Below are positions 13,491-46,849 of a stretch of 64,000 nt of DNA, piece after piece. How positions within the stretch are numbered: position 1 is the stretch's first letter; each line of letters begins with the position of its first letter. The notes under the pieces were generated by a model. The model was not told the origin of the DNA. It was given only the letters and a program-made list of their open reading frames with translations, and did no database searches. Source of the stretch: Verrucomicrobiota bacterium (GTDB lineage: Bacteria; Verrucomicrobiota; Verrucomicrobiia; Chthoniobacterales; UBA6821); contig JAIOPL010000015.1 in the NCBI GenBank assembly GCA_021413925.1, positions 41,409-105,408 on the forward strand, in the 5' to 3' direction. A program made the position numbers and the translations under genes.

Positions 13491-13585
13491 AAAAGGGCGT
13501 CCAGGACCTCACCAAGGGCAAACAAAACCCCAACCTCCAAGGCGGGAACCTCGAAGAAGACTTCACGCTCAGCGCAACGAAATGA
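13490..13585 (+). pseudogene. Orphan 3'-end remnant of a caspase-module gene
   Basis: Reads KGVQDLTKGKQNPNLQGGNLEEDFTLSATK* in its own frame. Homologous to 8668..8763 (KRVQDLTKGKQNPNLRGVNLEEDFALSSTK*). It ends in the same acgaaATGAaaa stop/start junction. Confidence 0.75.
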
Positions 13586-24173: not shown

Positions 24174-24847
24174 ACGGAGAGAGCCTCGCCATCAGCATGG
24201 ATCTTCATCTTTCGACTCTACCCAAGTCCCAGCAGACGCTCTGGGGGGAACTGGATCAGGTGCCGACCGATTTTGTACTCTACGGCGGGACGGCGTTGGC
24301 TCTGCGCATCGGTCACAGAATCTCGGTCGACTTCGACTTCTTCAACGCATCGCCTTTCGAGCCCGATGAGTTGATCGCCCGGATACCCTTCGCCAAGGGA
24401 TCCGAAATTCTCCAGAGCAGCGCCAATGCTCTGACGATCCTGGTGGATCGCGGGGCACCGGTGAAGGTCTCGTTCTTCGGCGGGCTTGGATTCGGCCGCA
24501 TGGAGGATCCTGAGTCCGCCGCCGATAATAATGTGGCGATCGCCTCGGTGATCGATGTCTTCGCCAGCAAGCTCAAGACGATCCTTCAGCGTTCGGAGGC
24601 AAAGGACTACATCGATATCGCAGCGATCCTCGCTTCGGGAGTGTCCCTCGAGAAGGGACTCGGCGCGGCCCGGGCTCTCTATGGTGAGGGGATGAACACG
24701 CTCCTCCCCCTCAAGGCGCTCTGCTACTTCGGGGACGGGGATCTGGAGACTCTCAGCCTAGAGGTTCGGGAGCAACTCGTTGCCGCGGTCGCCGGGTTGG
24801 GAGAGATCCCCGGTATGGTACGCCGTTCAGGAAAATTGATCGGCTGA
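24170..24847 (+). CDS. Nucleotidyltransferase, AbiEii/AbiGii (DUF1814) toxin family
   Basis: ATG at 24170. LYGGTALALRIGHRISVDFDFF contains the GG[ST] and DxD nucleotidyltransferase motifs. Overall length is typical of AbiEii. Confidence 0.72.
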   Translation: MNGESLAISMDLHLSTLPKSQQTLWGELDQVPTDFVLYGGTALALRIGHRISVDFDFFNASPFEPDELIARIPFAKGSEILQSSANALTILVDRGAPVKVSFFGGLGFGRMEDPESAADNNVAIASVIDVFASKLKTILQRSEAKDYIDIAAILASGVSLEKGLGAARALYGEGMNTLLPLKALCYFGDGDLETLSLEVREQLVAAVAGLGEIPGMVRRSGKLIG

Positions 24848-28392: not shown

Positions 28393-28782
28393 GTGGTTTG
28401 CACGAGCAATATCGGCTCCCAGCAGCTGATGAGACCCACTCGGCTACCATTTGCAACACTGGAGAGGGCAGTACTGGCAGAGCTTCACCGGCACTTCAGG
28501 CCAGAACTGATTGGGAGGTTCGATGAGAAGATCGTTTTTAAGCCCCTCTCACCGGAGACCCGGAGGGAGATCGCGATGATCGTGATCGGCGAAGAAATCG
28601 AGCGTTATCGCAAGATGGGACTCGATCTCGCAGTGGATGCAGAAACCGTTGAAATGCTCGTCCGGAAGGGAATTACCAAGGGCTTAGGTGCCCGTCCCAT
28701 GAAACGTACAGTTCAGAAGTTTTTGGGGGATGTTGTTAGGGAGAGGATTAAGAACTTAGGGGGCGTAGACTCGGCCATGTAG
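28393..28782 (+). pseudogene. 5'-truncated Clp/Hsp100 AAA+ ATPase fragment (C-terminal D2-small domain only)
   Basis: Begins at VCTSNIGS (the sensor-1 TSN region). Continues FRPELIGRFDEKIVFKPLS...GARPMKRTVQKFL, matching the last ~130 aa of ClpA/ClpB-type proteins. Nothing upstream encodes the remaining ~700 aa. Confidence 0.7.
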
Positions 28783-29299
28783 TTAGAAGAATCTCAGTAA
28801 ATCCATGGGAGTCGAATGCTTCGAGATGAGTAATGGGAATTTGAAGACTCGTCGCGATAAGATTGGCATGATGCAATTCATTTTCTTGATGATGTTTGAT
28901 ATGAGCCTCATCAACATACACACCATCACGCTCTCTTAGGCGAAGGCTGATTAAATGAGGTAAATCATGGAAAACTACGATTGCATCGAGAGAAAGACGA
29001 TTGAAAAACTCAATCGAGATTTCAACGATCTCATTGATGTCATTCAAAAGAGTAAAATGACCATCTAGAATAAGTTTTTGACCAATTAACACTAGTTTCC
29101 TGTGAACTCCATGAATTAGGATTTCCTGATTTGCGTTAGTGTTTTTTTGTAAATTCGAATCGACTAAAGCATTCTCTAAAGATTCGTTCTTGATAATCTC
29201 ACTAGCGGTGAAATGTGGTATAAACAATTCTTTTCCGACCCGACTGCATATGGTCGTCTTACCAACACCATGTACCCCAGCTACAAATAATATACCCAT
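28748..29299 (-). CDS. P-loop NTPase / small kinase-like protein
   Basis: Walker A motif GVHGVGKTT at the N-terminus. 183 aa, AT-rich. Starts 2 nt after the upstream ASCH gene. Confidence 0.65.
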   Translation of the reverse strand: MGILFVAGVHGVGKTTICSRVGKELFIPHFTASEIIKNESLENALVDSNLQKNTNANQEILIHGVHRKLVLIGQKLILDGHFTLLNDINEIVEISIEFFNRLSLDAIVVFHDLPHLISLRLRERDGVYVDEAHIKHHQENELHHANLIATSLQIPITHLEAFDSHGFTEILLTTWPSLRPLSS

Positions 29300-29301
29300 C
29301 G

Positions 29302-29724
29302 TTAATTGAGATGTTTTTCCAAGCGGATCATGTCTTTTTTATTAACGTAACTAAAAGATTGAGGAGCCCGGAATCTCTTCCCAAAGATATTTATAGGCAG
29401 CAAAGGTTTTTTAAACGGGCGTACGGTGGTTAGCTCGATGCCGTAGGCCTTTTTCTTGCCATGAAGGTATGCGGTAAGTTTGTTTTTGGAGATTCCTCCG
29501 CCGACTTTAGCTGAAAGTTCGCATAATTTATTTGGTGAGGCTATCGTAACTTTTTTGACGCGAGCAACAGCAACTATATGTTGAACCGGGCTCGTAGCGT
29601 AAATCACGATTTTGTCGACAGGATACGCTGCCCAACAGCGCCTAAATTCAATACGCTTTTTACCTGAAAGAATCTGGTCAGTATAACACGGATGAATGGA
29701 TATCAGAATTGATCTACTTTCCAT
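29302..29724 (-). CDS. ASCH domain protein
   Basis: ILISIHPCYTDQILSGKKRIEFRR...KIVIYATSPVQHIVAVARVKKV is the classic ASCH (PUA-like) pattern. Confidence 0.78.
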   Translation of the reverse strand: MESRSILISIHPCYTDQILSGKKRIEFRRCWAAYPVDKIVIYATSPVQHIVAVARVKKVTIASPNKLCELSAKVGGGISKNKLTAYLHGKKKAYGIELTTVRPFKKPLLPINIFGKRFRAPQSFSYVNKKDMIRLEKHLN

Positions 29725-31189
29725 ATTTCATTATTAGATTAAGTGATTCATCTGAGATTTTAGTGATGCTTTGAGGGGACTTCTTTAAAACACAATTGCT
29801 TATGAGCCAATCGAGTGGTGCTTGATGTTCGAAGTGCTGAATTAAACGGAAAAGCATAACTCTTGTCTCTTTACATGCCATTAACTTTATTTCTTCCATC
29901 TTATAGACAGTCCGTCGCCTTACTTTGCTGGCGATTGCATCTGCGTCTTGAAGCGTATTATACGTTTCGACTACACCTAGACTTGTTACTGCTTGTTCAT
30001 CTTTAGAGCGATAAAACAATACGATATCTCCAGGAGACATTGTCTTTGTTGGAGAATTGCATAAATAAGCTAACTTAATTGCATTTCCTGCAGAATTATC
30101 TTGAGTGAAGAAATCTAATTGTTGATTTTTCTGATTATAGTCTGGGAACAGTATATTGTGAAATCTAGGTAGTATAGGTACGATAAATTTTCCTATAGAT
30201 GCATCTGATCGGAAATGCGGGAAGTATTTCTTTAGGTAAATGAAAGCATCGATCGCTTCACTAGGTGGCAGCACCGGATGCTGCTTTATATAAACTGCGT
30301 CTCTCCCATTAGAACCGGCATGGCTTCCAACTCGAGAAAAGCCGAAATCTTGCAGCATTTCAAAAAGGAAGTGATGTTGTTCGACATCTCCATGGATGAA
30401 GATATTTTGTATCTTATTAGCAGTTGCATAACGAAACGCTGCCTTTAAAAATAGCTCCCCGATCTTCCGTCCTCGCACTGATTCTCCCACTTTGAAGGTA
30501 CATAACTTGAGAGCTGCACCCGGCAACCTCATTCCCTCAGCTGTAATGACCTCATCGTCCTGCTGTGCATAAATACAAAGCGCTCCAATACGACCTGAGT
30601 CCTCCCACGAAACCCAGGCCCTATTCCCATCTTTGGCTTTGGCATGAAACCAGTTGTCAAATGTTGGGTATCCTGCTCTTAAGCTAGTAAAGAAATCCGT
30701 TTCAAGGAGTGGAGTAAGCGAATAAAGAGGGACTTCCTCAATGTTTGGAAGCTCGACAGCGACTTTTGAGTGTAGACGCCGAAGTAAATCCTCCGCCGTC
30801 TGGATAGTGTAAACCTGTTCGACCAGCCCATATTTTTTGGCCTTCTCGTGAATTCCCTGATCCTCTGTTACCAGGGCATGAACTGCAGAGCATTTTAAGG
30901 CGTAGAGTATCTCATTGTCCGCTGCATCGTTTGGATTTGTCTCTGGTGTATTCCAGGGAGAGGCGGGGGCACGGTCAAGCCGAGGGTATTGTTTGATGCG
31001 ATCCAGATTCTGCTTCAGCCGCTTCGGATCAGTATCGCGTCTAAAATCAGTTTCAGATGCAGGGTGATGGACTAGTTGATGCCCATTTTCGTTTGCCAAA
31101 CGCACAAAGTTAGCCAGACCTGTTTTCAACACATGACTCGAGTCCTCAAGGGGAATAAGTATATTCGTATCGAGAAGAAAGCGCATCAT
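29714..31189 (-). CDS. Three-domain protein: PIN-like nuclease, GNAT acetyltransferase, C-terminal PUA-like (EVE/ASCH-like) domain
   Basis: N-terminus MMRFLLDTNILIPLED...LVTEDQG carries PIN-type acidic residues. Middle section FKVGESVRGRKIGELFLKAAFRYA is GNAT motif A. C-terminus MSPGDIVLFYRSKDEQAVTSLGVVE is PUA-like. 11-nt overlap with the ASCH gene. Confidence 0.65.
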   Translation of the reverse strand: MMRFLLDTNILIPLEDSSHVLKTGLANFVRLANENGHQLVHHPASETDFRRDTDPKRLKQNLDRIKQYPRLDRAPASPWNTPETNPNDAADNEILYALKCSAVHALVTEDQGIHEKAKKYGLVEQVYTIQTAEDLLRRLHSKVAVELPNIEEVPLYSLTPLLETDFFTSLRAGYPTFDNWFHAKAKDGNRAWVSWEDSGRIGALCIYAQQDDEVITAEGMRLPGAALKLCTFKVGESVRGRKIGELFLKAAFRYATANKIQNIFIHGDVEQHHFLFEMLQDFGFSRVGSHAGSNGRDAVYIKQHPVLPPSEAIDAFIYLKKYFPHFRSDASIGKFIVPILPRFHNILFPDYNQKNQQLDFFTQDNSAGNAIKLAYLCNSPTKTMSPGDIVLFYRSKDEQAVTSLGVVETYNTLQDADAIASKVRRRTVYKMEEIKLMACKETRVMLFRLIQHFEHQAPLDWLISNCVLKKSPQSITKISDESLNLIMKYGK

Positions 31190-31362: not shown

Positions 31363-32637
31363 TTACGCTTTCACCATGGGTAGCTCCCCCCAGCTTGTCG
31401 TGTAGTGCGGGGAATGACGTTCGGCTTTCATCCTCCAGCCTTTACCTGATCGTTCTGTCCCCTGGGAGGCGCGGGTGATCACGGGGTTCTTGGGATCACC
31501 CATGCGGCGGTTGATCTCATCCACGATCTTGTCCACATCGATCCTGCCTGCTTGTGGCTGATCAAAGAGACTGGGTTGGTACTCATCCTCGGCAACGAGG
31601 TTGACCAGCTGAACCCCGGTCTTCTTGTAGCGGTAGCCTGGACGATAGATCTGACGGAGAAACTCCCTGGCAATAGTCATCAACTCCGCTGCTGAAGAGG
31701 TGGGTCTATCCAGCGTGATGGCAATCCCACGGGAATACTGGGGCTCATCCTTCTTGAAGCGGTTGGTCTGGAGGAAGACTTCCATCCTGGTAGCCAGTAG
31801 TCCGTATCGGCGGATCTTCTCGCTGGCGCGGGCAACATGGTTGGCAAGGGACTCTTCCAACTCCTCTAGGCCCTCTACAGGTCTTCCGAATGAGCGGCTG
31901 GCCATCACCCCCTTGCGATCAGGTGGCATCTCTTCCAGTTCCATGCAGGGAATGCCATTTAGTTCCCGGAGCATCCGCTCGCCTATCACCCCCATGCTCT
32001 TCCGGATTGCAGCTGGGTCAGCCTGTTTGAATTCCAAGGCGGTCTTGACGCCCATTCCCCTCAGCCGTTGAGCGAGGTTCTTCCCAACGCCCCAGAGGTC
32101 GCCGGTTTCCATTCCGGAGAGAATCCCATCCGGATCCCAGTAGCTGGTCAGATCAAAGACGCCCCCAGTGACAGCCTTGTTCTTCTTGGCGTGGCGGTTG
32201 GCTGCTTTGGCCAGCAGCTTGGTGGAACCAATTCCAATGCAGACGGGAATGCCAGTCCACTGCAGCACCTTGGCTCTGAGTGCTCGGGCCTGCTCCTCGG
32301 TGAATCCTGCTGAAACCTGAAGGAAAGCCTCGTCGATGGAGTAGACTTCGATGGCGGGAACCTCGTCCCTGAGGATGCTCATCACCCTGGCGCTCATGTC
32401 CCCGTAGAGTGTGTAATTGCTGCTGAAAACGTGGACCCCGTATTTTCGGATCACCGCCTGCGGTTCATGGAGGGGCGCACCCATGGGAATACCCAAGGCC
32501 TTGGCCTCGTCGCTGCGGGAGATGATGCAGCCATCGTTGTTGGAAAGCACCACCACCGGCTTCCCCATGAGCGCGGGGTTAAAGACCCGCTCGCAGGAGC
32601 AGAAGAAGTTGTTGCAATCGACGAGGGCAACTTTCAC
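31363..32637 (-). CDS. umuC: Y-family translesion DNA polymerase V catalytic subunit (UmuC-like)
   Basis: MKVALVDCNNFFCSCERVFNPALMGKPVVVLSNNDGCIISRSDEAKALGI is the canonical UmuC/ImpB N-terminus. 424 aa. Confidence 0.9.
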   Translation of the reverse strand: MKVALVDCNNFFCSCERVFNPALMGKPVVVLSNNDGCIISRSDEAKALGIPMGAPLHEPQAVIRKYGVHVFSSNYTLYGDMSARVMSILRDEVPAIEVYSIDEAFLQVSAGFTEEQARALRAKVLQWTGIPVCIGIGSTKLLAKAANRHAKKNKAVTGGVFDLTSYWDPDGILSGMETGDLWGVGKNLAQRLRGMGVKTALEFKQADPAAIRKSMGVIGERMLRELNGIPCMELEEMPPDRKGVMASRSFGRPVEGLEELEESLANHVARASEKIRRYGLLATRMEVFLQTNRFKKDEPQYSRGIAITLDRPTSSAAELMTIAREFLRQIYRPGYRYKKTGVQLVNLVAEDEYQPSLFDQPQAGRIDVDKIVDEINRRMGDPKNPVITRASQGTERSGKGWRMKAERHSPHYTTSWGELPMVKA

Positions 32638-32649
32638 GAAATTAAATCA

Positions 32650-33399
32650 CTAACTAACTGGCTTTTTTGCTTTGTTAATCCTTTTAGCAAGTTTTCCAAG
32701 ATGGATCCGGTTTTTCAAAAACAACTCTTCAAGTGCATGTTCCATCAGTTTGAATGAACTGATAACATCCTTCCTGGCAGAAATAGAATGTGCTCCATCA
32801 TTTCCTATCCACTTAATTGCTCTGAGCTTTTCTGCAACATCAGGCTTCTTTTCACTAAAAAAAGAAATTCTTTTATCAAGACATATTCTAACCCTCTTTT
32901 GTTTTTTATTTATAGCATACTTTTTAACCTTATAGTGATCCATTAATCTTTCCACAGCAATACGAACAGAATTAGCTGAAGATGATGGGCTTTTCCAAAA
33001 TTGAGAAAAGGCCTCAAGTAAAGCCAGAGAAACATCTTCTGGATATACTTTATGTAATTTAAAGATGTGTATTGGAGGAGTGAAATATTCCGGAAATAAT
33101 AAAGATGTGTATTGTTGTTGATTGGACAAGGTATTAATTTCCTCTTTAGTGTTAAAGTTTCCGACACAATATATATTTTCATTACATTCTTTATTTGGAC
33201 ATACAAGTCGTAAAAAAAATACTCCCGAATAATACTCAGGACTGCTATCAGCATACTCCATGCAAAACCAAGAATCAGCGGATTGAGCAAAATCAGGTTT
33301 TTTATTGTTAGCCCTAAGCTGAAAATCACACTTTGGGCATACAAATAAATTAAAATCATCGATGCTTAAGCTAGCCTTTAGTAATTGTGATTTTATCAT
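32650..33399 (-). CDS. Zinc-ribbon plus DUF4145-like protein inserted between umuD and umuC
   Basis: AT-rich. Cys pairs CPKCDFQL...CPNKECNENIYC. C-terminal IKWIGNDGAHS resembles the DUF4145 (R/K)xxGNxxxH motif. ATGA-type 4-nt overlap with the umuD stop. Confidence 0.6.
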   Translation of the reverse strand: MIKSQLLKASLSIDDFNLFVCPKCDFQLRANNKKPDFAQSADSWFCMEYADSSPEYYSGVFFLRLVCPNKECNENIYCVGNFNTKEEINTLSNQQQYTSLLFPEYFTPPIHIFKLHKVYPEDVSLALLEAFSQFWKSPSSSANSVRIAVERLMDHYKVKKYAINKKQKRVRICLDKRISFFSEKKPDVAEKLRAIKWIGNDGAHSISARKDVISSFKLMEHALEELFLKNRIHLGKLAKRINKAKKPVS

Positions 33400-33824
33400 T
33401 TAGCCTGATGGATGATGTAGGTAACAGATCCCCAGATCGTTAGTTCCTGATTCTCACCGACCTCAATGGGGGCGAAGGAATCATTGGCAGCCTCCAAGGT
33501 GATTCTGCCATTTACCTTGCGGAACCGTTTCACGGTGAATTCCCCGTCGATCATGGCCACCACGATCTGACGGTCAGTTGGGGTGACTGACTTATCGACG
33601 ATCAGGGTATCTCCTGTATGGATTCCAGCATCACGCATCGATTCCCCTTTGACACGGACAAGGAAAGTTGCGGCAGGATTGCGGATCAGTTCCTCGTTAA
33701 GGTCGATCCCCCGCTCGAGGTGGTCGTCTGCTGGGGATGGAAAGCCTGCCTCCACGGACGCAGAAACCAGCGGGAGCTTCAGGCTTGTGCGCTTTTCAAA
33801 AGGGACGGGTGTGGAGAGAGACAT
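33396..33824 (-). CDS. umuD: UmuD-like S24 peptidase (polymerase V accessory subunit)
   Basis: VEAGFPSPA contains the Ala-Gly self-cleavage site. GESM provides the Ser nucleophile and the Lys lies in FTVKRF. 142 aa. Confidence 0.9.
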   Translation of the reverse strand: MSLSTPVPFEKRTSLKLPLVSASVEAGFPSPADDHLERGIDLNEELIRNPAATFLVRVKGESMRDAGIHTGDTLIVDKSVTPTDRQIVVAMIDGEFTVKRFRKVNGRITLEAANDSFAPIEVGENQELTIWGSVTYIIHQAK

Positions 33825-36251: not shown

Positions 36252-39200
36252 TTATCCGACAGCCCGTGTTTTTACGTCATCAAGGATTGAAATAATCTGG
36301 TCAACCTGTGCTGGTTGAAAAACTCCATCCACGCCAAGGGGATTAAAATCAGTATAAGGTGATTCATACAGGCGACCTGCATCCATGATTCCATGTTCAG
36401 TCAGGTGATTCACTATCTCATCCAGAAACTCGATCTGGTTGGCCGTAAGGGCCTGCGTTGAGACAAAGGAATCCAATGCCCCTTTTGCCGCCTCACGATC
36501 CATGCCGACCAGTGAGCGAACAAAAATGCCGAGGCCATGGTTTTCCGCTTTGGCCTTCGCTACATCGGCAGCAGTCCCAATTCCATTCTCGGTCAAGATG
36601 CGCTCCAGCTCACAAAGATCAGAGGCCGTGAGCGGTTCATTGGTCCTCAGCTTGTGGATGGTAATGTGATCCTCATGCTCTCTCAGGAATCGCCTGGCCT
36701 TTTCACGGAAGCGTTCAAAATCCTGCCCCCCGACGACCCCTGGCAGCTCAATCGGCTTCTCTTCGCCCTTCTCATCCTCGAAGTCCGTATAGATCGGCTT
36801 CCGGTTCTTCTTTTCGATGAGCTTAATGAGCAACCGAAGGCGCTTCCTGACATTTTCCAGCAAAGGCACGGTGACATGCTCCCAGTATTCCTCCGTCTGG
36901 ATCTGTTCGATCAGGACCATATGATCCCGTACCATCGGGATGCTTTCCTTCTCTTCAAGTAGCCCCGCTATGGCGATGACTTGATCTCGAAGACGTATAA
37001 AGCCTGGCCCCGTCGTGAGAACCGCCAGCTGGAGATTCAGGATCAACAGATCAAAGCGTTTGGCCTCCTCCTCGTCTGTTTCGATTTCTGATGGAAGTCC
37101 CGCAACCTGACGAGCCAGTTCCTCACCCTGTTCATTCGTGAGGACATCCCAGGAGCTAGGTTCCACATACTTCTCGATCAACCTCCGCTTGGGCCGCACC
37201 ACAAAATTCTCCAGATTCATTCCACTCACCTCCTCATGGAGCAGACCAGCGGTTTCCTTCCGCAGTTCCTCCAGGGCGGTGTTACCCTCCTTGCCGCGAA
37301 CCTCGGCACCGATCTTTTCATCGAGCTCAGCAATTATCTGAAGGCGCTTCACAAAGAGTTTCTTACCGAGCGAAGGAGCAACATTGCCCTCGGTGGCTTC
37401 AGGATTCTGACTGAAGAACTCTAGGTTCTGGCAAAAGTCGAAGATGTAGAAGAACTCCTTGTTCTGCCCGGGTCCGAAAAGATCAGGGCAGAGTCGCGTT
37501 CCTCGACCAATCATCTGCCAGAATTTCGTCTTCGAGCGCACGAGCTTGAAGAAAACGACATTTAGCACTTCTGGGACATCGATTCCGGTGTCGAGCATGT
37601 CTACCGAGATAGCGATATGGGGTGCGCCATCTTTGACGGAGAAGTCCTCGATCAGATCCTGAGCATACTCCGTCTTAAAGGTAATCACCCTGGCGAACTC
37701 TCCCCTGTAGTGTGGGTAGTTGGCATTAAAGCGCTCCCCGATGAACTCAGCATGGGCCTGATTCTTGGCAAAGATGATCGTTTTCCCTAGCCGGTCGCCA
37801 CCAGCCACCTTCTGACCATGGGTCATCAGGTGCTCCAGCACTTTATCGACTGTGTCCTTGTTGAAGAGCCACTTGTTCACCATCTCAGCCTCCACTCGGG
37901 CTGGAGTGTTCCCCTCCTCATCCCACTCTAGGGCATCCCATGCCTCCTTCTCCTCCTCAGAGAGATCATCGTAGGAGATTCCCTCTCTTTGGAACTTCAG
38001 CGGCACTGAGACCGCCTTGGGCGGCACCAAATAGCCATCCTTCACTGCTTCCTCGAGAGGGTAGGCATCCGTGGGAACTCCATTCTCCAACTCAAACAGA
38101 CTGTAGGTATTCCGATCCACCTCATCCTTTGGCGTCGCAGTCAGTCCGACCAAAAGAGAGTCAAAGTAGTCGAAGATCGCCCTGTATTTCTGGAAGACCG
38201 AGCGATGCGCCTCATCGATGATGATCAGGTCAAAGTGCCCTGGGCCAAATCGTCGCTGACCATCCTTCGTCTCATCTATCAGACCCATCATCGTCGGATA
38301 GGTCGACACATAGACGCGGCCCTCCGTCTCCTTCTCGGTCACGAGATTCACGGGCGCAGAGTCGGGCAGATATGCCTTGAAGGCATTCACAGCCTGCTTC
38401 ACCAGAGCGATACGATCGGCTAGGAAGAGAACCCTTTTCGCCCAGTTGCAGCGCATCAGGAGATCCGAAAGAGCAATCACTGTACGAGTCTTGCCTGCCC
38501 CAGTGGCCATAACGATAAGGGCCTTGCGATCATGATCCTTTTGGAAGGCATCACCGATACGTCGGATGGCCCTCTCCTGATAGTAGCGCTCGACGATCCC
38601 CTTGTTAATCTCGGTCCCAGCAAGCGGCTTCCTTGAGGATCGGCGCTGAATCATCAGCTCCAGCTCATCCTTCTTGTAAAAGCCCTGCACAGGTCTCGGA
38701 GGATAGCTCGTGTCATCCCAGATCCAGTGTTCATAGCCATTGGTGTAGAAAATGACCGGCCTGCGCCCATACATCGCCTCCAGACAGTCGGCATAGAGCT
38801 TCGCCTGTTGCTGGCCGACACGGGGATCGCGCTTCGTCCGCTTGGCCTCTACGACGGCGAGAGGGAGCCCGTCATCTCCCCAGAGGACATAATCGACGAA
38901 TCCCTCACTCTTCTCATTGGGCATCCCTGTCACAGGAAACTCCCGATCACGCTCCTGATCGAGAGCCCATCCGGATTCCTTCAGCAGCAGATCGATGAAG
39001 TAGTCCCGAGTCTCTGCTTCCGAGTAGTCGTGATCATCCTCCTGTTTGGCATTTGCCCTCCTGGCTTCCGCGACCTCAGCCCGGAGACGCTTGAGTTCAT
39101 CATCGAGCCCTGCACGCTCCTCCAAGAGGGTTGAGAGTTTCTCATCCTTTTGCTTCAGATCCGATTCCAGCTTCTGAAGTTGTTCAGGATTCTGGGGCTC

Positions 39201-39647
39201 AGCTCCTGAGACTGCGGCAGCCTTCGGTAGCAGCTCCGGATTGAATGCAAGATCCGCAGCAGGCTTCGATCCCTTCCCATATGTCTGGACCAGCCAGTAG
39301 CTCAGATGAAAGAGTTCCTTCACCGCCATCAGGGCATCGTACTGCCGGATTGGTTTATGGCTGTGGACTGCTAGGTTGCCGACTTCCCTGATCAGTTGCA
39401 CCTTGGCAAAGATCATTGGGCCAACTGTATTCCGGAAGCTCGGCTCATGAATCAGAGCGCTGAGATTTTCCTGATAGGGCAGCTTCAGATCCCCATCGTT
39501 CTTGTAGATCCAGTGGACTGCGAGTTCCAGTGACCTCCTCGCATAGAAGCAGGCCGCCCTCGGGTCGGGATAGACCAATGACTCTGACTTAGACGCTGCG
39601 TCCTGCAGAGCAGTCCATTCTGTGGCTAGGAAGGAGAATTGGCTCAT
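36252..39647 (-). CDS. hsdR: Type I restriction enzyme R subunit (N-terminal DUF4145-like, HSDR_N, SF2 helicase, EcoEI-type C-terminus)
   Basis: IREVGNLAVHS is DUF4145-like. EAETRDYFIDLLLKESGW is HSDR_N. Helicase motifs MATGAGKT and IIIDEAHRS. C-terminal LTANQIEFLDEIVNHLTEHG. Confidence 0.9.
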   Translation of the reverse strand: MSQFSFLATEWTALQDAASKSESLVYPDPRAACFYARRSLELAVHWIYKNDGDLKLPYQENLSALIHEPSFRNTVGPMIFAKVQLIREVGNLAVHSHKPIRQYDALMAVKELFHLSYWLVQTYGKGSKPAADLAFNPELLPKAAAVSGAEPQNPEQLQKLESDLKQKDEKLSTLLEERAGLDDELKRLRAEVAEARRANAKQEDDHDYSEAETRDYFIDLLLKESGWALDQERDREFPVTGMPNEKSEGFVDYVLWGDDGLPLAVVEAKRTKRDPRVGQQQAKLYADCLEAMYGRRPVIFYTNGYEHWIWDDTSYPPRPVQGFYKKDELELMIQRRSSRKPLAGTEINKGIVERYYQERAIRRIGDAFQKDHDRKALIVMATGAGKTRTVIALSDLLMRCNWAKRVLFLADRIALVKQAVNAFKAYLPDSAPVNLVTEKETEGRVYVSTYPTMMGLIDETKDGQRRFGPGHFDLIIIDEAHRSVFQKYRAIFDYFDSLLVGLTATPKDEVDRNTYSLFELENGVPTDAYPLEEAVKDGYLVPPKAVSVPLKFQREGISYDDLSEEEKEAWDALEWDEEGNTPARVEAEMVNKWLFNKDTVDKVLEHLMTHGQKVAGGDRLGKTIIFAKNQAHAEFIGERFNANYPHYRGEFARVITFKTEYAQDLIEDFSVKDGAPHIAISVDMLDTGIDVPEVLNVVFFKLVRSKTKFWQMIGRGTRLCPDLFGPGQNKEFFYIFDFCQNLEFFSQNPEATEGNVAPSLGKKLFVKRLQIIAELDEKIGAEVRGKEGNTALEELRKETAGLLHEEVSGMNLENFVVRPKRRLIEKYVEPSSWDVLTNEQGEELARQVAGLPSEIETDEEEAKRFDLLILNLQLAVLTTGPGFIRLRDQVIAIAGLLEEKESIPMVRDHMVLIEQIQTEEYWEHVTVPLLENVRKRLRLLIKLIEKKNRKPIYTDFEDEKGEEKPIELPGVVGGQDFERFREKARRFLREHEDHITIHKLRTNEPLTASDLCELERILTENGIGTAADVAKAKAENHGLGIFVRSLVGMDREAAKGALDSFVSTQALTANQIEFLDEIVNHLTEHGIMDAGRLYESPYTDFNPLGVDGVFQPAQVDQIISILDDVKTRAVG

Positions 39648-39662
39648 GGGAAGGGTCTTTTT

Positions 39663-40466
39663 CTAGGTCCTAATTTTGGGAACTTTTACAACGACATCCA
39701 GCTTTCTGTGGATGAGGGATATCAGCGATAGGTAATCAGCCGCATCATCCTCACCCTCCCAAAGTATCTTTGGCTCATGAGCCAAAGGGTTTCTTACTGC
39801 GGCAAAACAGCCTTTAATTAAAGCGGCAAAACCCTTGTGTTCCGATTGTTCCGTCTCAGTCCGAAGGGAATTGATTGCTAAAATCGGGGAGTCAATGGAG
39901 AAGACGACATCAATGAGCTTGGCCCCGTCATAATGGAATCCTGAAAGGTCTCTGATACGCTGAGCGAGCCCCTTTGACGCCTCAAAAACGGCATGAAAAT
40001 AGTTCTCTTGCAAAAGTTCTGCCTGACAGTACTTCAGCACCTCTGCATGGATCTTTCTTCCTTCAAACTTTGTGCGTATCGTGCGAGCTCTTTTCTCGGC
40101 TTCATCAAGGGTGCGTGCAGTGTCGCATTTCCTCATCTTTCCATCTTTCCCATATTCTAACCCAGAGAAGGAAAGAAGTGCGTTTAGCTGCTGCCGATGG
40201 GATTCAAACTCTTCATTGCGCCCAATAAACCGCGCAGGGATTAGGAAGGATTGGATAAAATCGATAATCTTGTTGGCGCAGGCATGCTGATGCTGGGTTT
40301 TAAGAAATACCCAATAAATCCTACGCCATTTTGTTGATTCACCCGACAAGTCTTCAAGACTGCGATCCTGGAAAACACGGGTGATGTCGGTTCCTGAACC
40401 ACAATTACCGAGTAGTTTGGCAAGGCCCTCAATCTGGCCTTCGGGAAATGGCGGGATCTTACTCAT
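39663..40466 (-). CDS. TIGR02391/Abi_C-like protein with Rx4H (HEPN-type) motif
   Basis: The C-terminal half FHAVFEASKGLAQRIRDL...GFAALIKGCFAAVRNPLAHEP matches the TIGR02391 pattern. That family is documented as associating with restriction loci. Confidence 0.65.
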   Translation of the reverse strand: MSKIPPFPEGQIEGLAKLLGNCGSGTDITRVFQDRSLEDLSGESTKWRRIYWVFLKTQHQHACANKIIDFIQSFLIPARFIGRNEEFESHRQQLNALLSFSGLEYGKDGKMRKCDTARTLDEAEKRARTIRTKFEGRKIHAEVLKYCQAELLQENYFHAVFEASKGLAQRIRDLSGFHYDGAKLIDVVFSIDSPILAINSLRTETEQSEHKGFAALIKGCFAAVRNPLAHEPKILWEGEDDAADYLSLISLIHRKLDVVVKVPKIRT

Positions 40467-40566
40467 GATAACGCCTTTGATTTAGGAAATCGGTGGTGAC
40501 GAGCTTGGATTTCTTGTTTTGGGACATAGAGGGAGAATCAATCAATTGTGAACAGAGGATGGTCAA

Positions 40567-43500
40567 TCAACCAAGCTCTCCAGAATCGCCCGGCTTGGGA
40601 TCAAGATTCTGGAACTCGAATCGCGCTAGGTTGATTAACACGGATTGTACCTCCACGGCCTGCTTTTTGGCATCCTCACTAGAAGCGAGACCATTGCGTA
40701 GAATCATTTTGATCTCCTCATCCATTCCCCACCAGTAAGGGATCTCTTTTTCTCTATTCTTGTCTGGAAAGACAATTCTATGGAAGCAGTCCATAGCCAC
40801 CTCCGGATAGTTGGCTGAGTATTCGGCCAGCGGCTTGATCACCATGAAGTCATGGCCATCGCCGATGAACGGGCGCAAAATCAGAACTCTTTGAAGAATC
40901 TTCACCGTCCACTCGGCATCCAGCTGCTGGGCGTCCACCCAGGTCCAGAAGCCCTCCAACTCTACAAGTTGGTCGCTTTTGATTCCGGATTGTTCCAGTT
41001 CTCTCAACCGCCACTCCATGAGATTACAAAAACGCTCTTGGACATCATTAGGGACCCCCTCTTTGGTGGTTCTCATACTCCTGCCGATAAAAGTGAGCAG
41101 GTGAGCCTTAAGAGCGACCGTCCCATTCTTGTAGAACCGATCTAGTAGATTGCCTGATGCATCTGGTTGATCAGGAAGGGGAAGATTTCCCCACCAGTAG
41201 TAAGCGGCCAGATGGTGGACGAGACCCTCGCCGGGATCCCACTGACGGGAATCCTTTTCACGAGGATCCTGAGAGATCGATCTGATTGCTCTGACATACT
41301 CTTTCCCAAGAGCCTCAAACGCAGTTTTCGTGGCCCCCTGCATCGTGACGAAGCAGCTCCAGACAGCATTCCTCTCTGCTACACGATCAGCAGGGAAGAG
41401 ATCATCGAGGTGCGTCTCCACCCATTCACGATGGAAATGGAGGAGCATGCCCATCTTTTCTCCGTAGATTCCACGGCCAGCCAGCGTCGGCTCCGCCCTG
41501 AGACGCGCTTCCAGAAGCTCAAGCACGCGCTTCTTCAAGTCATCCCTCTGTGCCCCATCCTCAGAATGAAGAACTCGATCCAGGTCAAAGAGAGCACGCA
41601 TAGCCACCAACCGCGTTGTATTCAGCGATGTCATGGCCAGCTCTCCTGGTGACTCCGTATCCTTTCCATCCTTCTCGGGATCCGGATGTTGTAGGAGCAG
41701 GGCGATACAGCCCAGCAACTGATCCCATGCAGTGCTTGGGAAGTTGACCTCCTTCTTGGAGATCGCTCCTTCCAGACCTCTGGCAATCTCGATTCCCAGG
41801 TTGCGATTCTCAGAGCCAGCCAGCTTCAGGATCACCCCATGGATGGCCCATGCAGTTTCTGTGAGCAGTGAAGACCAATCCAGCGGAGTGCCAGCGAAGG
41901 CTGCCTCGAAGCATCCTTGCAAGATGCTCAGATACCGATCAACAGAGAGACGCTCGTGATCGGATAGGATACGATACTTTTGAATGTCTTTGAGAAAAAA
42001 CTCAGGCTGCTTGAGAGCAGCACTTTTCAGAGCCCCCTGCAGACCCCACTCATCAACCTCATCAAGGTGCTGTTTCTGCTTCCATGCCCTGATTTCAGAA
42101 AGGACCCAATCGTTCGGCTCAGTGAGAATGGTTTCTACCGTAAACGGACTTTCATTCGGCATGATTTGCACATCGCTCTTCCAAGACCTAAAGGCTGGAT
42201 GCCCTGGAGTCTTGAAATGCTCATGCAATTCATTGAATCGTTCCTGCCATTGTTCGGGCAGTTTCCCATTCAGGAGAGAGAGTTGCTGATATTGCCAGTA
42301 ACGTTTCCAGATATCGAGAGTTTCCTCGTCGGGAGGGGCTCCCTCGTGGTCCTGCATGTAATATTCAATGCGAGTAGAGAGATCAGGCCCTCCCTCGATC
42401 CATCCTAAAATCCTATTTTTGTCTTCTTCGACGAGACTGTCGAATTTCTCCTCGAGCATGACGAACCACTCGTGAGGGTTATCCGCTCCCAAAACAGCAC
42501 CTGCATCCAATTCATTGTTAACCTGTTGGATTGCCCCAAATTCCCGAATTAGATGGAGATTCAATCGCTTAAAAATCAGCCAAGGGAAGGCCTTTAATAT
42601 TTCAACTGCTTCATTTAATCGCGCAGGCCGTCCTGATATAACTCTTTCAGATAAGTCGCGGATTCCTATTACGAGATATTCCCTGTGGTCGTAGTCTCGA
42701 AGCTGATCACTAGGCTCTACGGAACCCATCCATATTTCTGAGTAATCATCCCACTTTCTGTCTTCAGAACCTTTATTTACGCCTGAATGAGTGATCGCAT
42801 CCGATAAGAGATCACAGTAAATCTTCAGGAGATTCAGTACATCATCAGGCTGAACCTTCAGAGTTATTTCAGAAACTAAAGATTTGTAATCATATAGATC
42901 CCATATCGAATCGGTTTTTGATATTCTAACAAGTTGATCGAGATCACTTTGAGTATCTGAATCAGAATTTTCCTCTAATTCAAAGTCGAGACGTAGTACT
43001 GCGAGAATTAGATCCGCGACATCTTTGGTGAGACCACTTGAGATCAGATGAGCAATAAAGTTTTGGTATGATAAATGGGATCGCCCAGGATTTCTTTCTT
43101 TCAACCATGCTTTTGCATAGGAGATAAAGTCCGTAGCTAGATTGATTGGAAGTTGGCTTGCAATACCTAGCAGCCTCTGCTGGATGAATGGCGTTGCCCT
43201 CGTTGCTAGCTTCAGAGCAGCTTTCTGTGCTGGATCAGGCGTTTCGACTACAAACTTTTCCAAGAAAAAAACTTCGGGAAGTAGTGGGTTTGGTGAATCT
43301 GGATTAGGACCATATCTTTCCCCAACATCAAACCACCCGTTTTCCAAGAGAATATGAACCCACTTACTATCAGTAATGCATTCAAAGAAGAATACGCGCT
43401 CTGCCCATTGATCAAAAAGAAGATAGATTGCCTCTAATGTATCCCTTGATGGCAGAAATGTTAGTTCTACAATAGTTTTTATCTCATTAAACTTAGCAGG

Positions 43501-44118
43501 TTCATTGGGCCGAAGATATTTTAGAAGAATATTTTCAAGGCTCTCAATTTGTTTATTTAGTGGAAACCTAGATGCCCTAGACTTATGATGAGCATAATCA
43601 GTAAACCGATCATAGAGCTCCTTCCAACTGTTTATATCATCCTCAAACGAGGCTGGCTTAGGACGACTTTTCTGTAGTTTCCTGAGAGTTTTTTCAGCTT
43701 TGGCCAACTTCGGCCCTCGTTCGTTATCAATCCACGTACAAAAATCAAGGAATGAAGAAATAAAGCCTGATAGTATATTGCTATCTAAGTCTTTAAATGA
43801 AGGTTTCTTTTCAAGAAAATAGCTTTCATATTCACTTCGCAGGTTGTTTTCAACATATTGCCCCATGCTAATTCCTCCGCCTTCTCTTCCGATCCAGAAG
43901 TTAGCTTTCTCTATGACTTCCCGAAATCCATGGGCTGATAATGCTTCAAAATCAGAGCATTTGCTAAAACTAACCTCCAATGCCCCTCGATATATATGTG
44001 CTATTCTATTATCATGGTGACTCAATAAATTGAAAACTAATAGAGTTTTCCCTTCTAGTGAAAATTTTCTGGCTCCATCAGTATTACTATCTCCAAAGTC
44101 TGAGGGTTCAAAACTCAT
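40567..44118 (-). CDS. Large (1183 aa) predominantly alpha-helical protein of unknown function embedded in the type I R-M operon
   Basis: Uninterrupted ORF with a 4-nt overlap onto the hsdS stop. No Walker, nuclease or other catalytic motif is recognisable. The Trp/Leu-rich periodic sequence suggests a helical-repeat architecture. The 5' third is more AT-rich. Confidence 0.7.
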   Translation of the reverse strand: MSFEPSDFGDSNTDGARKFSLEGKTLLVFNLLSHHDNRIAHIYRGALEVSFSKCSDFEALSAHGFREVIEKANFWIGREGGGISMGQYVENNLRSEYESYFLEKKPSFKDLDSNILSGFISSFLDFCTWIDNERGPKLAKAEKTLRKLQKSRPKPASFEDDINSWKELYDRFTDYAHHKSRASRFPLNKQIESLENILLKYLRPNEPAKFNEIKTIVELTFLPSRDTLEAIYLLFDQWAERVFFFECITDSKWVHILLENGWFDVGERYGPNPDSPNPLLPEVFFLEKFVVETPDPAQKAALKLATRATPFIQQRLLGIASQLPINLATDFISYAKAWLKERNPGRSHLSYQNFIAHLISSGLTKDVADLILAVLRLDFELEENSDSDTQSDLDQLVRISKTDSIWDLYDYKSLVSEITLKVQPDDVLNLLKIYCDLLSDAITHSGVNKGSEDRKWDDYSEIWMGSVEPSDQLRDYDHREYLVIGIRDLSERVISGRPARLNEAVEILKAFPWLIFKRLNLHLIREFGAIQQVNNELDAGAVLGADNPHEWFVMLEEKFDSLVEEDKNRILGWIEGGPDLSTRIEYYMQDHEGAPPDEETLDIWKRYWQYQQLSLLNGKLPEQWQERFNELHEHFKTPGHPAFRSWKSDVQIMPNESPFTVETILTEPNDWVLSEIRAWKQKQHLDEVDEWGLQGALKSAALKQPEFFLKDIQKYRILSDHERLSVDRYLSILQGCFEAAFAGTPLDWSSLLTETAWAIHGVILKLAGSENRNLGIEIARGLEGAISKKEVNFPSTAWDQLLGCIALLLQHPDPEKDGKDTESPGELAMTSLNTTRLVAMRALFDLDRVLHSEDGAQRDDLKKRVLELLEARLRAEPTLAGRGIYGEKMGMLLHFHREWVETHLDDLFPADRVAERNAVWSCFVTMQGATKTAFEALGKEYVRAIRSISQDPREKDSRQWDPGEGLVHHLAAYYWWGNLPLPDQPDASGNLLDRFYKNGTVALKAHLLTFIGRSMRTTKEGVPNDVQERFCNLMEWRLRELEQSGIKSDQLVELEGFWTWVDAQQLDAEWTVKILQRVLILRPFIGDGHDFMVIKPLAEYSANYPEVAMDCFHRIVFPDKNREKEIPYWWGMDEEIKMILRNGLASSEDAKKQAVEVQSVLINLARFEFQNLDPKPGDSGELG

Positions 44119-45311
44119 AACTTCCCTGAGAAAGCCCTGTGCTGAAGTGAGGCGAAGAGGGTGTCGAGTTCAACCAGGGAGGCGCGTTGGGTAGATTTGA
44201 GCTTTTTAACGGTAGTAACTCGATTGGCGAATTTGCGCTGCAACTCGATTGGTGGAACTGGAATAAGAAACGACCGAATATCGTCAAAGTTCAATCCAGC
44301 TTTCACTGCATGCCGATTCCTCCCAAATACTTGACGCTCACCAGCGGGAGAAGCGAAGTATGCAGAGAGAAATCGTGGAACGAGTGCTTTGCTTCTCAGA
44401 ATCGAAAGATGCTGATTGATGTATGCAGTTCCAAGACCTTCAGGAACGACTGCCGTGCGGCCTAAATCAGCGGTGATGCTTAAAAGAACGTCTCCAGTCT
44501 GAACTCTGGTCCGTTTTGCTTCGGCAGTATCAGGTGCTTTGACAAAGGCAATGTCATCTAGAAGGAGATGATCTCTCCGGACATTTTGGATGCGAAGAAA
44601 TAGATCGCCGGACTCAGAATAGTATTCTGCCCATCCACGAGAACCGCTCGTTAGAAATTCAAGTAACTCCCCCAACTTCTTGGTTGGCCATTTCTCTAAA
44701 ATCGAGGAGGGATCCCCAAACATCTCCAGAAAGATGGATTGGGTTAGGGTGTCGAGTTGGGCGAGAGCGGCGCGGCGCTTGGCTCGAACTTCCTCAGCCT
44801 TATCTAGCACCTCGGCAATACGCTTCTGCTCTTCCAACGGAGGCAGGGGGATTAGCAGTTTCAGGCAACGGTCAAAATTGAGATTTGATATGTTGGTAGT
44901 CTTTTGACCAAAGCTTCTCAAAAGAGCCTGAATCTTTCCCGAAGCAAACCAATGATAGAGATATCGGTTGAATACTTTTCCTTTCTTTCCCCTAAGGACA
45001 GAAATGAAACCTCCAAAGCTAGCACGGTAAGGCAACTGAGGTATCCAGCAGCATTTCCCGACTAGGTTCCAACTGTTTGCACTCGACACAAGAATGTCGC
45101 CGCACTGAAGCATTTGCTCCTCTCTTCTCACAAAAACCTCCCCCACTGCCCATACGTCCGAGAGATGTATTTCCGTCTGAACATTTTTTGTGCGCATACA
45201 CGCCACAGACCCTGGAGTATCCAAGGACACAACATCATCCGGCTTGAAATTGATACCTCGAATGAAGTCAGCAACCTCACCAAGCGCCACCATGGAGGGG
45301 GCTTTTGTCAT
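44115..45311 (-). CDS. hsdS: Type I restriction-modification specificity subunit
   Basis: Two TRD halves, each followed by the conserved helix IPLPPLEEQKRIAEVLDKAEE or IPVPPIELQRKFANRV. 4-nt overlap with hsdM. Confidence 0.9.
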   Translation of the reverse strand: MTKAPSMVALGEVADFIRGINFKPDDVVSLDTPGSVACMRTKNVQTEIHLSDVWAVGEVFVRREEQMLQCGDILVSSANSWNLVGKCCWIPQLPYRASFGGFISVLRGKKGKVFNRYLYHWFASGKIQALLRSFGQKTTNISNLNFDRCLKLLIPLPPLEEQKRIAEVLDKAEEVRAKRRAALAQLDTLTQSIFLEMFGDPSSILEKWPTKKLGELLEFLTSGSRGWAEYYSESGDLFLRIQNVRRDHLLLDDIAFVKAPDTAEAKRTRVQTGDVLLSITADLGRTAVVPEGLGTAYINQHLSILRSKALVPRFLSAYFASPAGERQVFGRNRHAVKAGLNFDDIRSFLIPVPPIELQRKFANRVTTVKKLKSTQRASLVELDTLFASLQHRAFSGKL

Positions 45312-46849
45312 GAGCCAATCATCTCCTCCAGTTCCTTCATCCCGAGGACGATTTCTTTCTCCAGCTCGGCGAGGCTGGCGATGATCTCCTTGGGTGGCTT
45401 GTGGGCCACCAACTCGTGGACGACTTCCTTGTAACGATTCAGCGAGAGGTCGTAGCCCTGGGCCGCGATGTCACCCTTTGGCACGCAGAAGCTCTGGGCC
45501 GTCCGGGGATTTCCTTTCTCTGATCCATCACGCTGGCTCCATCGGGTCAGGAGATCGGGGAGATTATTCTTGGGATGTTCCTCGGTGGAGAGCTGTTCCC
45601 GAGTGACGGAACCGAGCTTCTCAGAGGAGAGTAGTGGGGTGCGCTTGTCATCCAGGCTCCACCCATCAGCGGAGACATCATAGAACCAGACATGATCTGT
45701 GCCTCCGGAGTTTGTCTTGGTGAAGAGCAGGATCGCCGTGGAGACTCCGGCATAGGGCTTGAAAACACCTCCGGGGAGGGAGATGACGGCATCGAGCTTC
45801 TGCTCCTCGACCAGTAGGCGGCGGAGTTCTTTGTGGGCCTTCGACGAGCCGAAGAGGACTCCATCAGGAACGATGACGGCTGCGCGGCCTCCCGGCTTCA
45901 GCAGTCGGAGGAAGAGGATCATGAAGAGGAGCTCGGTCTTCTTGGTTTTGACAACTTGGAGGAGGTCTTTGGCACAGTTCTCGTAGTCGAGGGATCCGGC
46001 GAAAGGAGGATTAGCCAGAACGAGGGTGTATTTCTCCTCTTCCCCAGCATGATCCTGTCCGAGGGAGTCGCGGTAGCGGATGTCGGGATTCTCCACTCCG
46101 TGGAGCTGCATATTCATGCTGCCGATACGGAGCATGGTGTTGTCGAAATCGAACCCATGAAACATCCCCTCGTGAAAGTGCTTCCTTAGCGCGGTATCCC
46201 GCAGGATCTCGGGGTGGTGGTCACGGAGGTGCTCTCCCGCGGCCACGAGGAAGCCGCAGGTGCCGCTGGCTGGGTCGCAGATGACATCCTTCGCTGTAGG
46301 GGCCGTCAGCTCGACCATGAGCTGAATGATGTGGCGGGGTGTCCGGAACTGACCATTCCTGCCGGCCGAGGCGATCTTTCCGAGCATGTACTCGTAGAGA
46401 TCTCCCTTGGTATCCCGGTCCTCCATGGGGATGTGGTCGATCATGTCGACGACCTTGGCCAGTAGGGAGGCCTTCGGGATGGTGAAGCGGGCATCCTTCA
46501 TATGATGCGCGTAGGTGGAGCCATCTCCGCCGAGGTTGCGGAGGAAGGGGAAGACATGCTCACCGATCACCGCAAACATTTCTGCAGGGGCGAAGTTCCT
46601 GAACCGTGACCAACGCAGATCCTCATAGGAGCGTCCTTTGGGATCTTTCCCCTCGGGGAAAATACGTCTCTCAATCGACTTACCCAGGCGAGCCGCCTTG
46701 CTCTCCTCCAAAGTCTGAAGATCATCCAAGCGCTTCAGAAAGAGCAGGTAGGTGATCTGCTCGATGACCTCCAGGGGATTGGAGAGCCCACCTGTGGCAA
46801 ACTCATTCCAGATACGATCAACTTGATTGCGAATTTCCCCGGTCAGCAT
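45308..46849 (-). CDS. hsdM: Type I restriction-modification methylase subunit
   Basis: HsdM N-terminal pattern ITYLLFLKRLDD. Motif I is DPASGTCGFL. Motif IV is LANPPFAG. Confidence 0.92.
   Translation of the reverse strand: MLTGEIRNQVDRIWNEFATGGLSNPLEVIEQITYLLFLKRLDDLQTLEESKAARLGKSIERRIFPEGKDPKGRSYEDLRWSRFRNFAPAEMFAVIGEHVFPFLRNLGGDGSTYAHHMKDARFTIPKASLLAKVVDMIDHIPMEDRDTKGDLYEYMLGKIASAGRNGQFRTPRHIIQLMVELTAPTAKDVICDPASGTCGFLVAAGEHLRDHHPEILRDTALRKHFHEGMFHGFDFDNTMLRIGSMNMQLHGVENPDIRYRDSLGQDHAGEEEKYTLVLANPPFAGSLDYENCAKDLLQVVKTKKTELLFMILFLRLLKPGGRAAVIVPDGVLFGSSKAHKELRRLLVEEQKLDAVISLPGGVFKPYAGVSTAILLFTKTNSGGTDHVWFYDVSADGWSLDDKRTPLLSSEKLGSVTREQLSTEEHPKNNLPDLLTRWSQRDGSEKGNPRTAQSFCVPKGDIAAQGYDLSLNRYKEVVHELVAHKPPKEIIASLAELEKEIVLGMKELEEMIGS

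Follow-up and report, generated by a model that had tools for sequence, protein, structure and literature searches.

A PIN-GNAT-EVE, ASCH and AAA_17 gene trio of the PDC-M11 class in a Verrucomicrobiota bacterium

Relation to described (PIN)-GNAT-EVE operons

Operons that encode a GNAT-EVE protein with or without an N-terminal PIN domain were surveyed by Bell et al. (2020, BMC Biol 18:159). In these operons the (PIN)-GNAT-EVE gene is nearly always accompanied by an ASCH gene and often by a gene for an AAA_17 ATPase, which was called non-essential. The PIN form is typically located beside type I restriction-modification (RM) and other defence genes. Bell et al. credit the first description of this operon type to Iyer et al. 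(2013, NAR 41:7635); as of 2020 none of these modules had been experimentally characterised. The PIN domains of such proteins were assigned to PIN_15/PIN_17 of the VapC group (Matelska et al. 2017). In PADLOC the system is listed as PDC-M11, with PDC standing for 'phage defense candidate'. Here we describe a trio of genes, A, B and C, that by its sequence is almost certainly a member of this (PIN)-GNAT-EVE / ASCH / AAA_17 class. It is found on a 64,000-nucleotide stretch of DNA from a Verrucomicrobiota bacterium (GenBank assembly GCA_021413925.1, contig JAIOPL010000015.1, positions 41,409 to 105,408 of the forward strand), which was analysed at its full length and is called the window in the following. 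The genes (sizes in amino acids, aa) and the domains of protein A are:

29714..31189, minus strand: gene A (g1), 491 aa, PIN-GNAT-EVE fusion, predicted effector/toxin (PADLOC PDC-M11A)
30746..31189, minus strand: A residues 1-148, PIN-like nuclease domain (Pfam, profile search, Foldseek, invariant residues)
30260..30745, minus strand: A residues about 149-310, GNAT-fold domain with derived motif A R239-G-R-K-I-G244 (Pfam PF00583, Foldseek)
29714..30259, minus strand: A residues about 311-491, EVE/PUA-like reader domain (Pfam EVE, Foldseek)
29302..29724, minus strand: gene B (g2), 140 aa, ASCH protein, predicted antitoxin/regulator (PADLOC PDC-M11B, Pfam ASCH)
28748..29299, minus strand: gene C (g3), 183 aa, adenylate-kinase-like P-loop protein, dedicated accessory (Pfam AAA_17)

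Gene A matches the PDC-M11A profile PDLC04422 over residues 2-490 of 491 (E = 1.2e-138), and gene B, which lies on the same strand and overlaps A, matches the PDC-M11B profile PDLC04424 (E = 9.7e-42). PADLOC models these two genes only, without the kinase gene. Compared to the operons of Bell et al. (2020), the trio has the same domain order, the same ASCH and AAA_17 partners and the same type I RM neighbourhood. The window copy shows no essential difference and is a member of the class from a Verrucomicrobiota metagenome-assembled genome (MAG). The initial annotation of this DNA did not recognise the combination as a named system. It is, however, PDC-M11, it was described by Matelska et al. 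(2017) and Bell et al. (2020), who both cite Iyer et al. (2013), and a PIN-less relative has been annotated as GevT/GevA. The class is thus already known and the combination is not new. In our literature search the terms 'PDC-M11' and 'GNAT-EVE' were found in the PADLOC listing and in Bell et al. (2020) only. The other proposal of the initial annotation, a candidate toxin or defence module, agrees with the PADLOC listing and with the defence-island context described below.

The PIN-less relative is found in the lambdoid E. coli phage PhiR47_2 (PV340567.1), in which a GNAT-EVE and an ASCH gene are annotated as 'GevT toxin' and 'GevA antitoxin'. Both are placed between cI and kil, i.e. in a moron slot. 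GevT is homologous to residues 166-435 of protein A, the GNAT-EVE part (E = 1e-27, 27% identity), and GevA aligns to the gene B family with an hhalign probability of 99.7%. Both partners of the phage pair are therefore homologous to those of the trio, the gene order is the same, and the phage genes overlap as well. The pair was detected in 275 of 5,426 complete E. coli genomes (5%). It differs from the trio in being prophage-borne and not RM-associated.

Domain architecture of the three proteins

Gene A has more than 1,700 homologues of about 490 aa that are more than 60% identical, and it matches PHROG 10674. A PIN-like N-terminus had been proposed for it, and this assignment is reasonable with moderate support. 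The N-terminus alone matched Pfam PIN_3 with E = 0.0063, which is below the cutoff, and the sole match of its profile in the PDB was the PIN protein TTHA0540 (E = 0.036). Structure predictions were run on substrings of database proteins. When the AF2 model of residues 1-148 (pLDDT 78, pTM 0.72) was searched with Foldseek, almost all matches were PIN domains, with Nmd4, AF0591, Utp24, SMG6 and VapC at the top (E = 3e-3 to 5e-2, TM 0.45-0.56). Furthermore, a set of 25 diverse homologues shows no variation at D7, E15, D91, N92, T108-E109-D110 and D134. With the VapC-type toxins protein A would thus share the PIN-like fold and the conserved D...E...D...D set. In contrast to VapBC systems, the trio has no VapB-type antitoxin, and the PIN domain is the N-terminal module of a 491-aa three-domain protein, a module that is dispensable in many relatives of gene A.

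For the central part of protein A, Pfam Acetyltransf_1 (PF00583) was matched just above the gathering score (E = 2.6e-4; 3.5e-5 for the isolated domain). The AlphaFold model of the whole protein (pLDDT 77) gave Foldseek matches to NatD (1.2e-6) and, at about 1e-5, to the tRNA-acetylating toxins TacT, AtaT and GmvT. For the GNAT region the Foldseek probability was 1.0 against NatD, PaiA, TacT and AtaT. The GNAT fold that had been read from the letters was thus recovered, but an intact acetyltransferase core was not. The canonical acetyl-CoA motif A (Q/R-x-x-G-x-G/A) is replaced by R239-G-R-K242-I-G244-E-L, in which the central Gly is changed to Lys or, in an alternative register, the last G/A to Leu. 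The variant, [RQ]GxK[IV]GEL, is kept in 83 of 83 homologues. This absolute conservation argues that the site would still bind something.

The toxins of the GNAT/RHH type II toxin-antitoxin (TA) systems, among them TacT, AtaT, ItaT, KacT and GmvT, acetylate aminoacyl-tRNA. They have the GNAT fold in common with gene A, and a TA-like organisation of the trio is plausible, but there is no sequence-level kinship beyond the superfamily. Differences are the non-canonical motif A ([R/Q]GxK[I/V]G), the fusion to PIN and EVE domains and the lack of an upstream RHH antitoxin/repressor. The partner in the trio is instead the downstream ASCH gene, while the upstream gene is umuC.

The C-terminal domain of protein A matched Pfam EVE (PF01878) with E = 3.9e-5 and 24.1 bits against a cutoff of 23. 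In Foldseek it resembled ZmASCH (5y6b/5guq) with E of about 1.5e-6 and TM (target) of 0.75-0.82, which bears out the PUA-like C-terminus suggested earlier. The motifs GNAIK, FYRS and RRTVY of this domain are invariant among the homologues.

Protein B is, as first annotated, a stand-alone ASCH domain (Pfam ASCH, E = 2.2e-7). The profile of its family matched ZmASCH in the PDB over the full length with E = 3.4e-25, and we take protein B as an orthologue of this crystallised protein. ZmASCH, the ASCH protein of Zymomonas mobilis (PDB 5GUQ/5GUS), binds nucleic acids and cleaves single-stranded RNA weakly and in a Mg-dependent manner in vitro, with Y47, Q127 and S128 being important residues; that study did not deal with its role in the cell or the operon around it (Kim et al. 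2017). Y47, R32, Q127 and S128 of ZmASCH correspond to Y42, R28, Q122 and S123 of protein B. Homology thus extends over the whole length with the key residues kept: Y42, Q122 and S123 are invariant in the gene B family. The position of ZmASCH K53, in contrast, is variable and occupied by Q48 in protein B.

Two further relationships of protein B were rejected. The EVE domain of A and protein B could have been close paralogues, with B as a decoy, but at profile level the hhalign probability was 3%, despite the FYRS/IYAT and PQS motifs being in register in the alignment; the structural likeness of the EVE domain to ZmASCH is not affected by this. An ac4C (N4-acetylcytidine) deacetylase like E. 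coli YqfB was not supported either. Using an unverified YqfB sequence, the hhalign probability for a YqfB-type amidohydrolase against the gene B family was 7.7%, and only a generic G-x-K-x-x-x-R stretch aligned. No YqfB structure was among the PDB matches of the gene B family profile.

Protein C, which had been noted as a Walker-A NTPase, is adenylate-kinase-like. It matched Pfam AAA_17 with E = 1.4e-14, and its profile retrieved from the PDB archaeal-type adenylate kinases (3.5e-8 to 1e-7) followed by UMP/CMP kinases. GxHGVGKT, DGH and R120/R124/D125 are invariant in the family. Scores against the NCBIfam kinase equivalogs (adk/cmk) were 16-25 bits and thus far under the cutoffs of 152-208.

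Conservation, composition and genomic surroundings

The comparison comprised 80 metagenomic loci, 3 other loci and several plasmid and phage records. Loci were gathered by an alignment-based metagenome scan; a single-sequence scan of genome contigs gave one locus. Collapsing the A proteins at 95% identity resulted in 66 lineages that are 49-95% identical to one another, and co-occurrence was counted over the lineages with room for the next gene. An ASCH gene directly follows A in every case (65/65), such that the pairing of A and B is obligate. A kinase of the gene C type then follows B in 54 of 58 lineages (93%) and is thus near-obligate. The order A-B-C on one strand is always preserved. The neighbourhood check that had been proposed with the annotation therefore found the trio elsewhere. 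From the four lineages without C, one carries a decayed P-loop remnant and one a NUDIX gene instead.

In 14 loci (11 lineages, about 19%) ASCH and kinase form one polypeptide of 322-393 aa, and independent ASCH-kinase fusions occur in the protein database (P0148, P0155). The B/C junction is most often a 4-nucleotide (nt) overlap. Order, strand and even the 11-nt A/B overlap of the window recur in other lineages at unrelated metagenomic and genomic loci, which shows that the arrangement is not due to chance. On plasmids, at least 9 of 11 records of the gene C kinase clade adjoin a (PIN-)GNAT-EVE gene, a few of them PIN-less. Since this clade occurs there almost only beside such genes, the kinase is a dedicated component rather than a casual neighbour. 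A restriction of the kinase to PIN-containing forms was considered and rejected, as it also accompanies some PIN-less GNAT-EVE genes (Vibrio, Pseudomonas, Enterococcus phage).

Of the flanking genes, hsdR, hsdM and hsdS alone recur; they are present at 17 loci, in each case in the orientation of the trio. Often hsdS either ends 12-27 nt before the start of gene A or overlaps that gene, and at some loci the trio is located between hsdS and hsdM. Candidates for a conserved fourth gene besides these were dismissed: a 364-aa membrane protein with NUDIX and DUF2971 genes, and a DUF6685 gene, are each confined to a clade. The 364-aa protein, which has a C-terminal membrane segment, is conserved immediately upstream of A in a Desulfoprunum-type clade without kinase (L002 6875-11339; L013 4876-5967). 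In L002 and L003, genes for a 113-aa NUDIX protein and a DUF2971 protein lie downstream. The PIN form is mainly cellular, as only 4 loci were obtained in the scan of viral contigs. It is also present on conjugative plasmids, beside integrase and partition genes, and in the archaeal prophage psiM100.

In the window the three open reading frames (ORFs) have exactly the coordinates and spacing first described, i.e. an overlap of 11 nt between g1 and g2 and a gap of 2 nt between g2 and g3 on the minus strand, and all peptide motifs cited then were found in their translations. Since the homologues of g1 begin at the second Met (MRFLLDT), its true start may be at 31186. A Verrucomicrobiota MAG encodes a protein that matches protein C with 100% identity, and the arrangement of the window is also seen on a short public contig.

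The GC content of the trio is 0.418, compared to 0.519 for the whole window and 0.53-0.58 for the flanking genes; in only 5.2% of 2.4-kb segments is it as low or lower. For the individual parts it amounts to 0.384 (kinase), 0.414 (ASCH), 0.361 (EVE), 0.459 (GNAT) and 0.484 (PIN). A GC content far below the surroundings, as initially claimed, thus holds for the 3' two thirds of the trio, while the dip over the PIN-coding part is milder. The low GC points to a foreign composition, indicating that the trio was probably acquired horizontally. The step inside gene A, from 0.48/0.46 to 0.36 in the EVE part, could mean that the fusion gene is a mosaic or arose by recombination.

All genes from 47.5 kb to 28.7 kb of the window are encoded on the minus strand. 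In transcriptional direction their order is hsdM, hsdS, Dsr1-like, PD-Lambda-3_B, hsdR, a 794-aa protein gene, umuD, a DUF4145 gene, umuC and the trio. The features surrounding the trio are:

59316-60728, minus strand: phage-integrase-family gene (Pfam E = 3.5e-8), about 12 kb beyond the RM locus
36252..46849, minus strand: type I RM locus (context, not core), about 5 kb upstream of the trio on the same strand
45308-46849, minus strand: hsdM
44115-45311, minus strand: hsdS
40567-44118, minus strand: Dsr1-like gene, 1183 aa, between hsdS and hsdR (PADLOC E = 3e-21, no Pfam match)
39663-40466, minus strand: PD-Lambda-3_B/Hypoth_Ymh gene (HEPN-like), between hsdS and hsdR (E = 4e-78)
36252-39647, minus strand: hsdR with N-terminal DUF4145 domain
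33846-36230, minus strand: 794-aa methyltransferase/specificity-like protein (mad2/MTase_I-like at about 41-263, specificity-like at about 350-490)
33396-33824, minus strand: umuD
32650-33399, minus strand: DUF4145 gene, 33% GC, between umuD and umuC, overlapping umuD by 4 nt
31363-32637, minus strand: umuC, directly upstream of the trio
28393-28782, plus strand: orphan 129-aa ORF, C-terminal end of ClpB/AAA_2 (AAA_2 tail and ClpB_D2-small)
24038-24847, plus strand: AbiEii-family nucleotidyltransferase toxin gene (Pfam E = 2.5e-17)
8760-13490, 13378-18024 and 20369-23842, plus strand: three giant proteins (1576, 1548 and 1157 aa) with C-terminal caspase domain (Peptidase_C14)

By this predicted gene content (type I RM, Dsr1-like, PD-Lambda-3_B, AbiEii) the window is a defence island with the trio at its edge. 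The ClpB-like ORF converges on gene C and shares 35 nt with the 3' end of that gene. The gene calls of an independent public contig include this ORF, which is probably a gene remnant that marks the island boundary. No tRNA genes and no obvious attachment sites were found in the 64-kb window.

Some of the neighbours have features of their own. The 794-aa protein, which has no Pfam match, may be a fused M-S protein of an RM-like system; its C-terminal 300 aa have no assignment. The DUF4145 gene, which gave a weak PADLOC match to PD-T7-4 and a match to PHROG 1305 ('DNA binding protein'), constitutes an unusual break in the umuDC operon. The giant proteins may be caspase-based conflict or signalling proteins. 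One of them also has an FGE-sulfatase domain, one Sel1 repeats and one LprI. The stretch of lowest GC in the window (about 0.33) starts near position 13600.

Possible functions of the module

The most likely function of the trio, which we favour with modest confidence, is that of a TA-type abortive-infection module coupled to restriction-modification. Protein A would be the effector. Its EVE domain would dock it on a nucleic acid, most probably RNA or tRNA and possibly one bearing a modified base. Damage to the docked target would then come from the PIN nuclease, the GNAT-like domain or both. Protein B, the ASCH protein, would keep A in check. Protein C would act physically together with B and couple the switch to ATP or nucleotide status. 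The assignment of toxin and antitoxin is suggested because the homologous phage genes carry the labels GevT and GevA (GenBank annotation only). That A may be competent as an effector is indicated by the invariant acidic residues of the PIN domain, the PIN and GNAT fold matches and the conserved motif-A variant.

A module of this kind would often provide a second line of anti-phage defence beside or inside a type I RM operon, much as PrrC does with EcoprrI. PrrC/EcoprrI and RloC are anticodon nucleases that are embedded in type I RM operons and fire upon inhibition of RM; PrrC combines an ABC-type ATPase with a HEPN-like nuclease. Similarly, the trio is predicted to be an RNase-containing, NTP-binding module on the same strand inside or beside hsdRMS, and a back-up role is plausible. 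PrrC has, however, no homology to the trio, and a guard function of the trio is purely inferred.

Several points weigh against the abortive-infection module. The PIN assignment is moderate, with a Pfam match under the cutoff and a best Foldseek E of 3e-3, and for the non-canonical motif A a loss of acetyltransferase activity was predicted (Matelska et al. 2017). The GevT/GevA labels are GenBank product names only, the experimental basis of which could not be read. In addition, the phage pair comes without a PIN domain and without a kinase gene, and the identity of GevT to protein A is only 27%. A literature search returned no experimental paper on PDC-M11, GNAT-EVE or GevT-GevA. HTH-ASCH and HsdS-ASCH fusions point to DNA and not RNA as the ligand (Bell et al. 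2020). The gene of the putative antitoxin lies downstream of the toxin gene, and weak RNase activity has been reported for the antitoxin itself, so that the two roles could be reversed or shared. Finally, a promoter and terminator scan of the trio detected neither a promoter nor a terminator of its own, with fewer matches than in shuffled sequence, such that transcription may simply continue from umuC into the trio.

As an alternative, which we consider doubtful, the trio could be a nucleic-acid modification or restriction system that acts alongside type I RM. This idea is attributed to Iyer et al. (2013), and the proposal is cited in Bell et al. (2020) and Matelska et al. (2017). The GNAT-like domain would acylate a base in DNA, or in an RNA substrate or guide, and EVE and ASCH would read this or another modified base. 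The PIN domain would be the restriction nuclease and the kinase would supply an ATP-dependent step, which would yield an epigenetic self/non-self or type IV-like system. The presence of two PUA-like reader domains per system is in favour of it: EVE, YTH and SRA relatives read 5-methylcytosine, 5-hydroxymethylcytosine and N6-methyladenine (5mC, 5hmC, m6A), and the same ASCH fusions to HsdS and HTH suggest DNA binding (Bell et al. 2020). So is the co-operonic location of the trio with hsdS/hsdM at many loci, and the strictly kept motif-A variant suggests a retained cofactor site. However, motif A is off consensus, no separate 'immunity' modification enzyme exists apart from the effector, and the phage relative is labelled (in GenBank) as a toxin-antitoxin pair and not as a modification enzyme. 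PIN domains of the VapC group are, moreover, mostly RNases, and we know of no base acylation of this kind for such systems.

Rather unlikely is a selfish addiction cassette that, by post-segregational killing, would stabilise a mobile island or RM operon and have no direct anti-phage role. The TA-like two-gene core with the toxin/antitoxin label of the phage homologue (GenBank only), the occurrence on conjugative plasmids beside integrase and partition genes, the patchy distribution and the foreign GC would all fit. On the other hand, the system is strongly and specifically enriched beside defence genes and not near plasmid maintenance loci, the prophage moron slot is typical of exclusion genes, and PADLOC lists the system as a defence candidate. 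Addiction and defence are not mutually exclusive.

More specific, and improbable in this form, is a restriction-coupled 'guard', in which the ASCH-kinase pair would sense the methylation or nucleotide state that the neighbouring type I RM system maintains or that a phage perturbs. It would then release a bifunctional effector, with tRNA or phage nucleic acid being both acylated, via a derived CoA site, and cut after EVE has recognised a modified base in it. If this were true, the module would represent an immune effector that acylates nucleic acids in an ATP-dependent manner, a chemistry that to our knowledge has not yet been demonstrated in prokaryotic defence.

The least likely rival, and a very improbable one, is a housekeeping operon of RNA metabolism or nucleotide salvage, e.g. 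for ac4C turnover with ASCH as YqfB-like amidohydrolase, the kinase re-phosphorylating the nucleoside or nucleoside monophosphate (NMP) and GNAT as ac4C writer: gene C is NMP-kinase-like, a NUDIX hydrolase, likewise a nucleotide-handling enzyme, replaces the kinase in one clade and ASCH-kinase fusions exist, but gene B is ZmASCH-like without specific YqfB likeness (7.7%, unverified YqfB sequence), the kinase equivalog scores are far under their cutoffs, a PIN nuclease has no role in salvage, and the system is sporadic, horizontally transferred and island-borne instead of belonging to a core gene set.

For the family, the favoured reading as a TA-type abortive-infection module would concern a widespread system that occurs in bacteria, archaea, plasmids and some phages and is consistently tied to restriction-modification. 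The window copy is ordinary for its class and adds little beyond another host phylum. Useful increments are that the kinase is close to obligate and has fused to ASCH repeatedly, that the trio is found inside hsd operons and that the motif-A variant is derived yet invariant. The module joins two folds that read modified bases with a nuclease, a GNAT-like domain and a kinase, and finding its target could bring to light an effector chemistry, or a means of backing up restriction, that is new.

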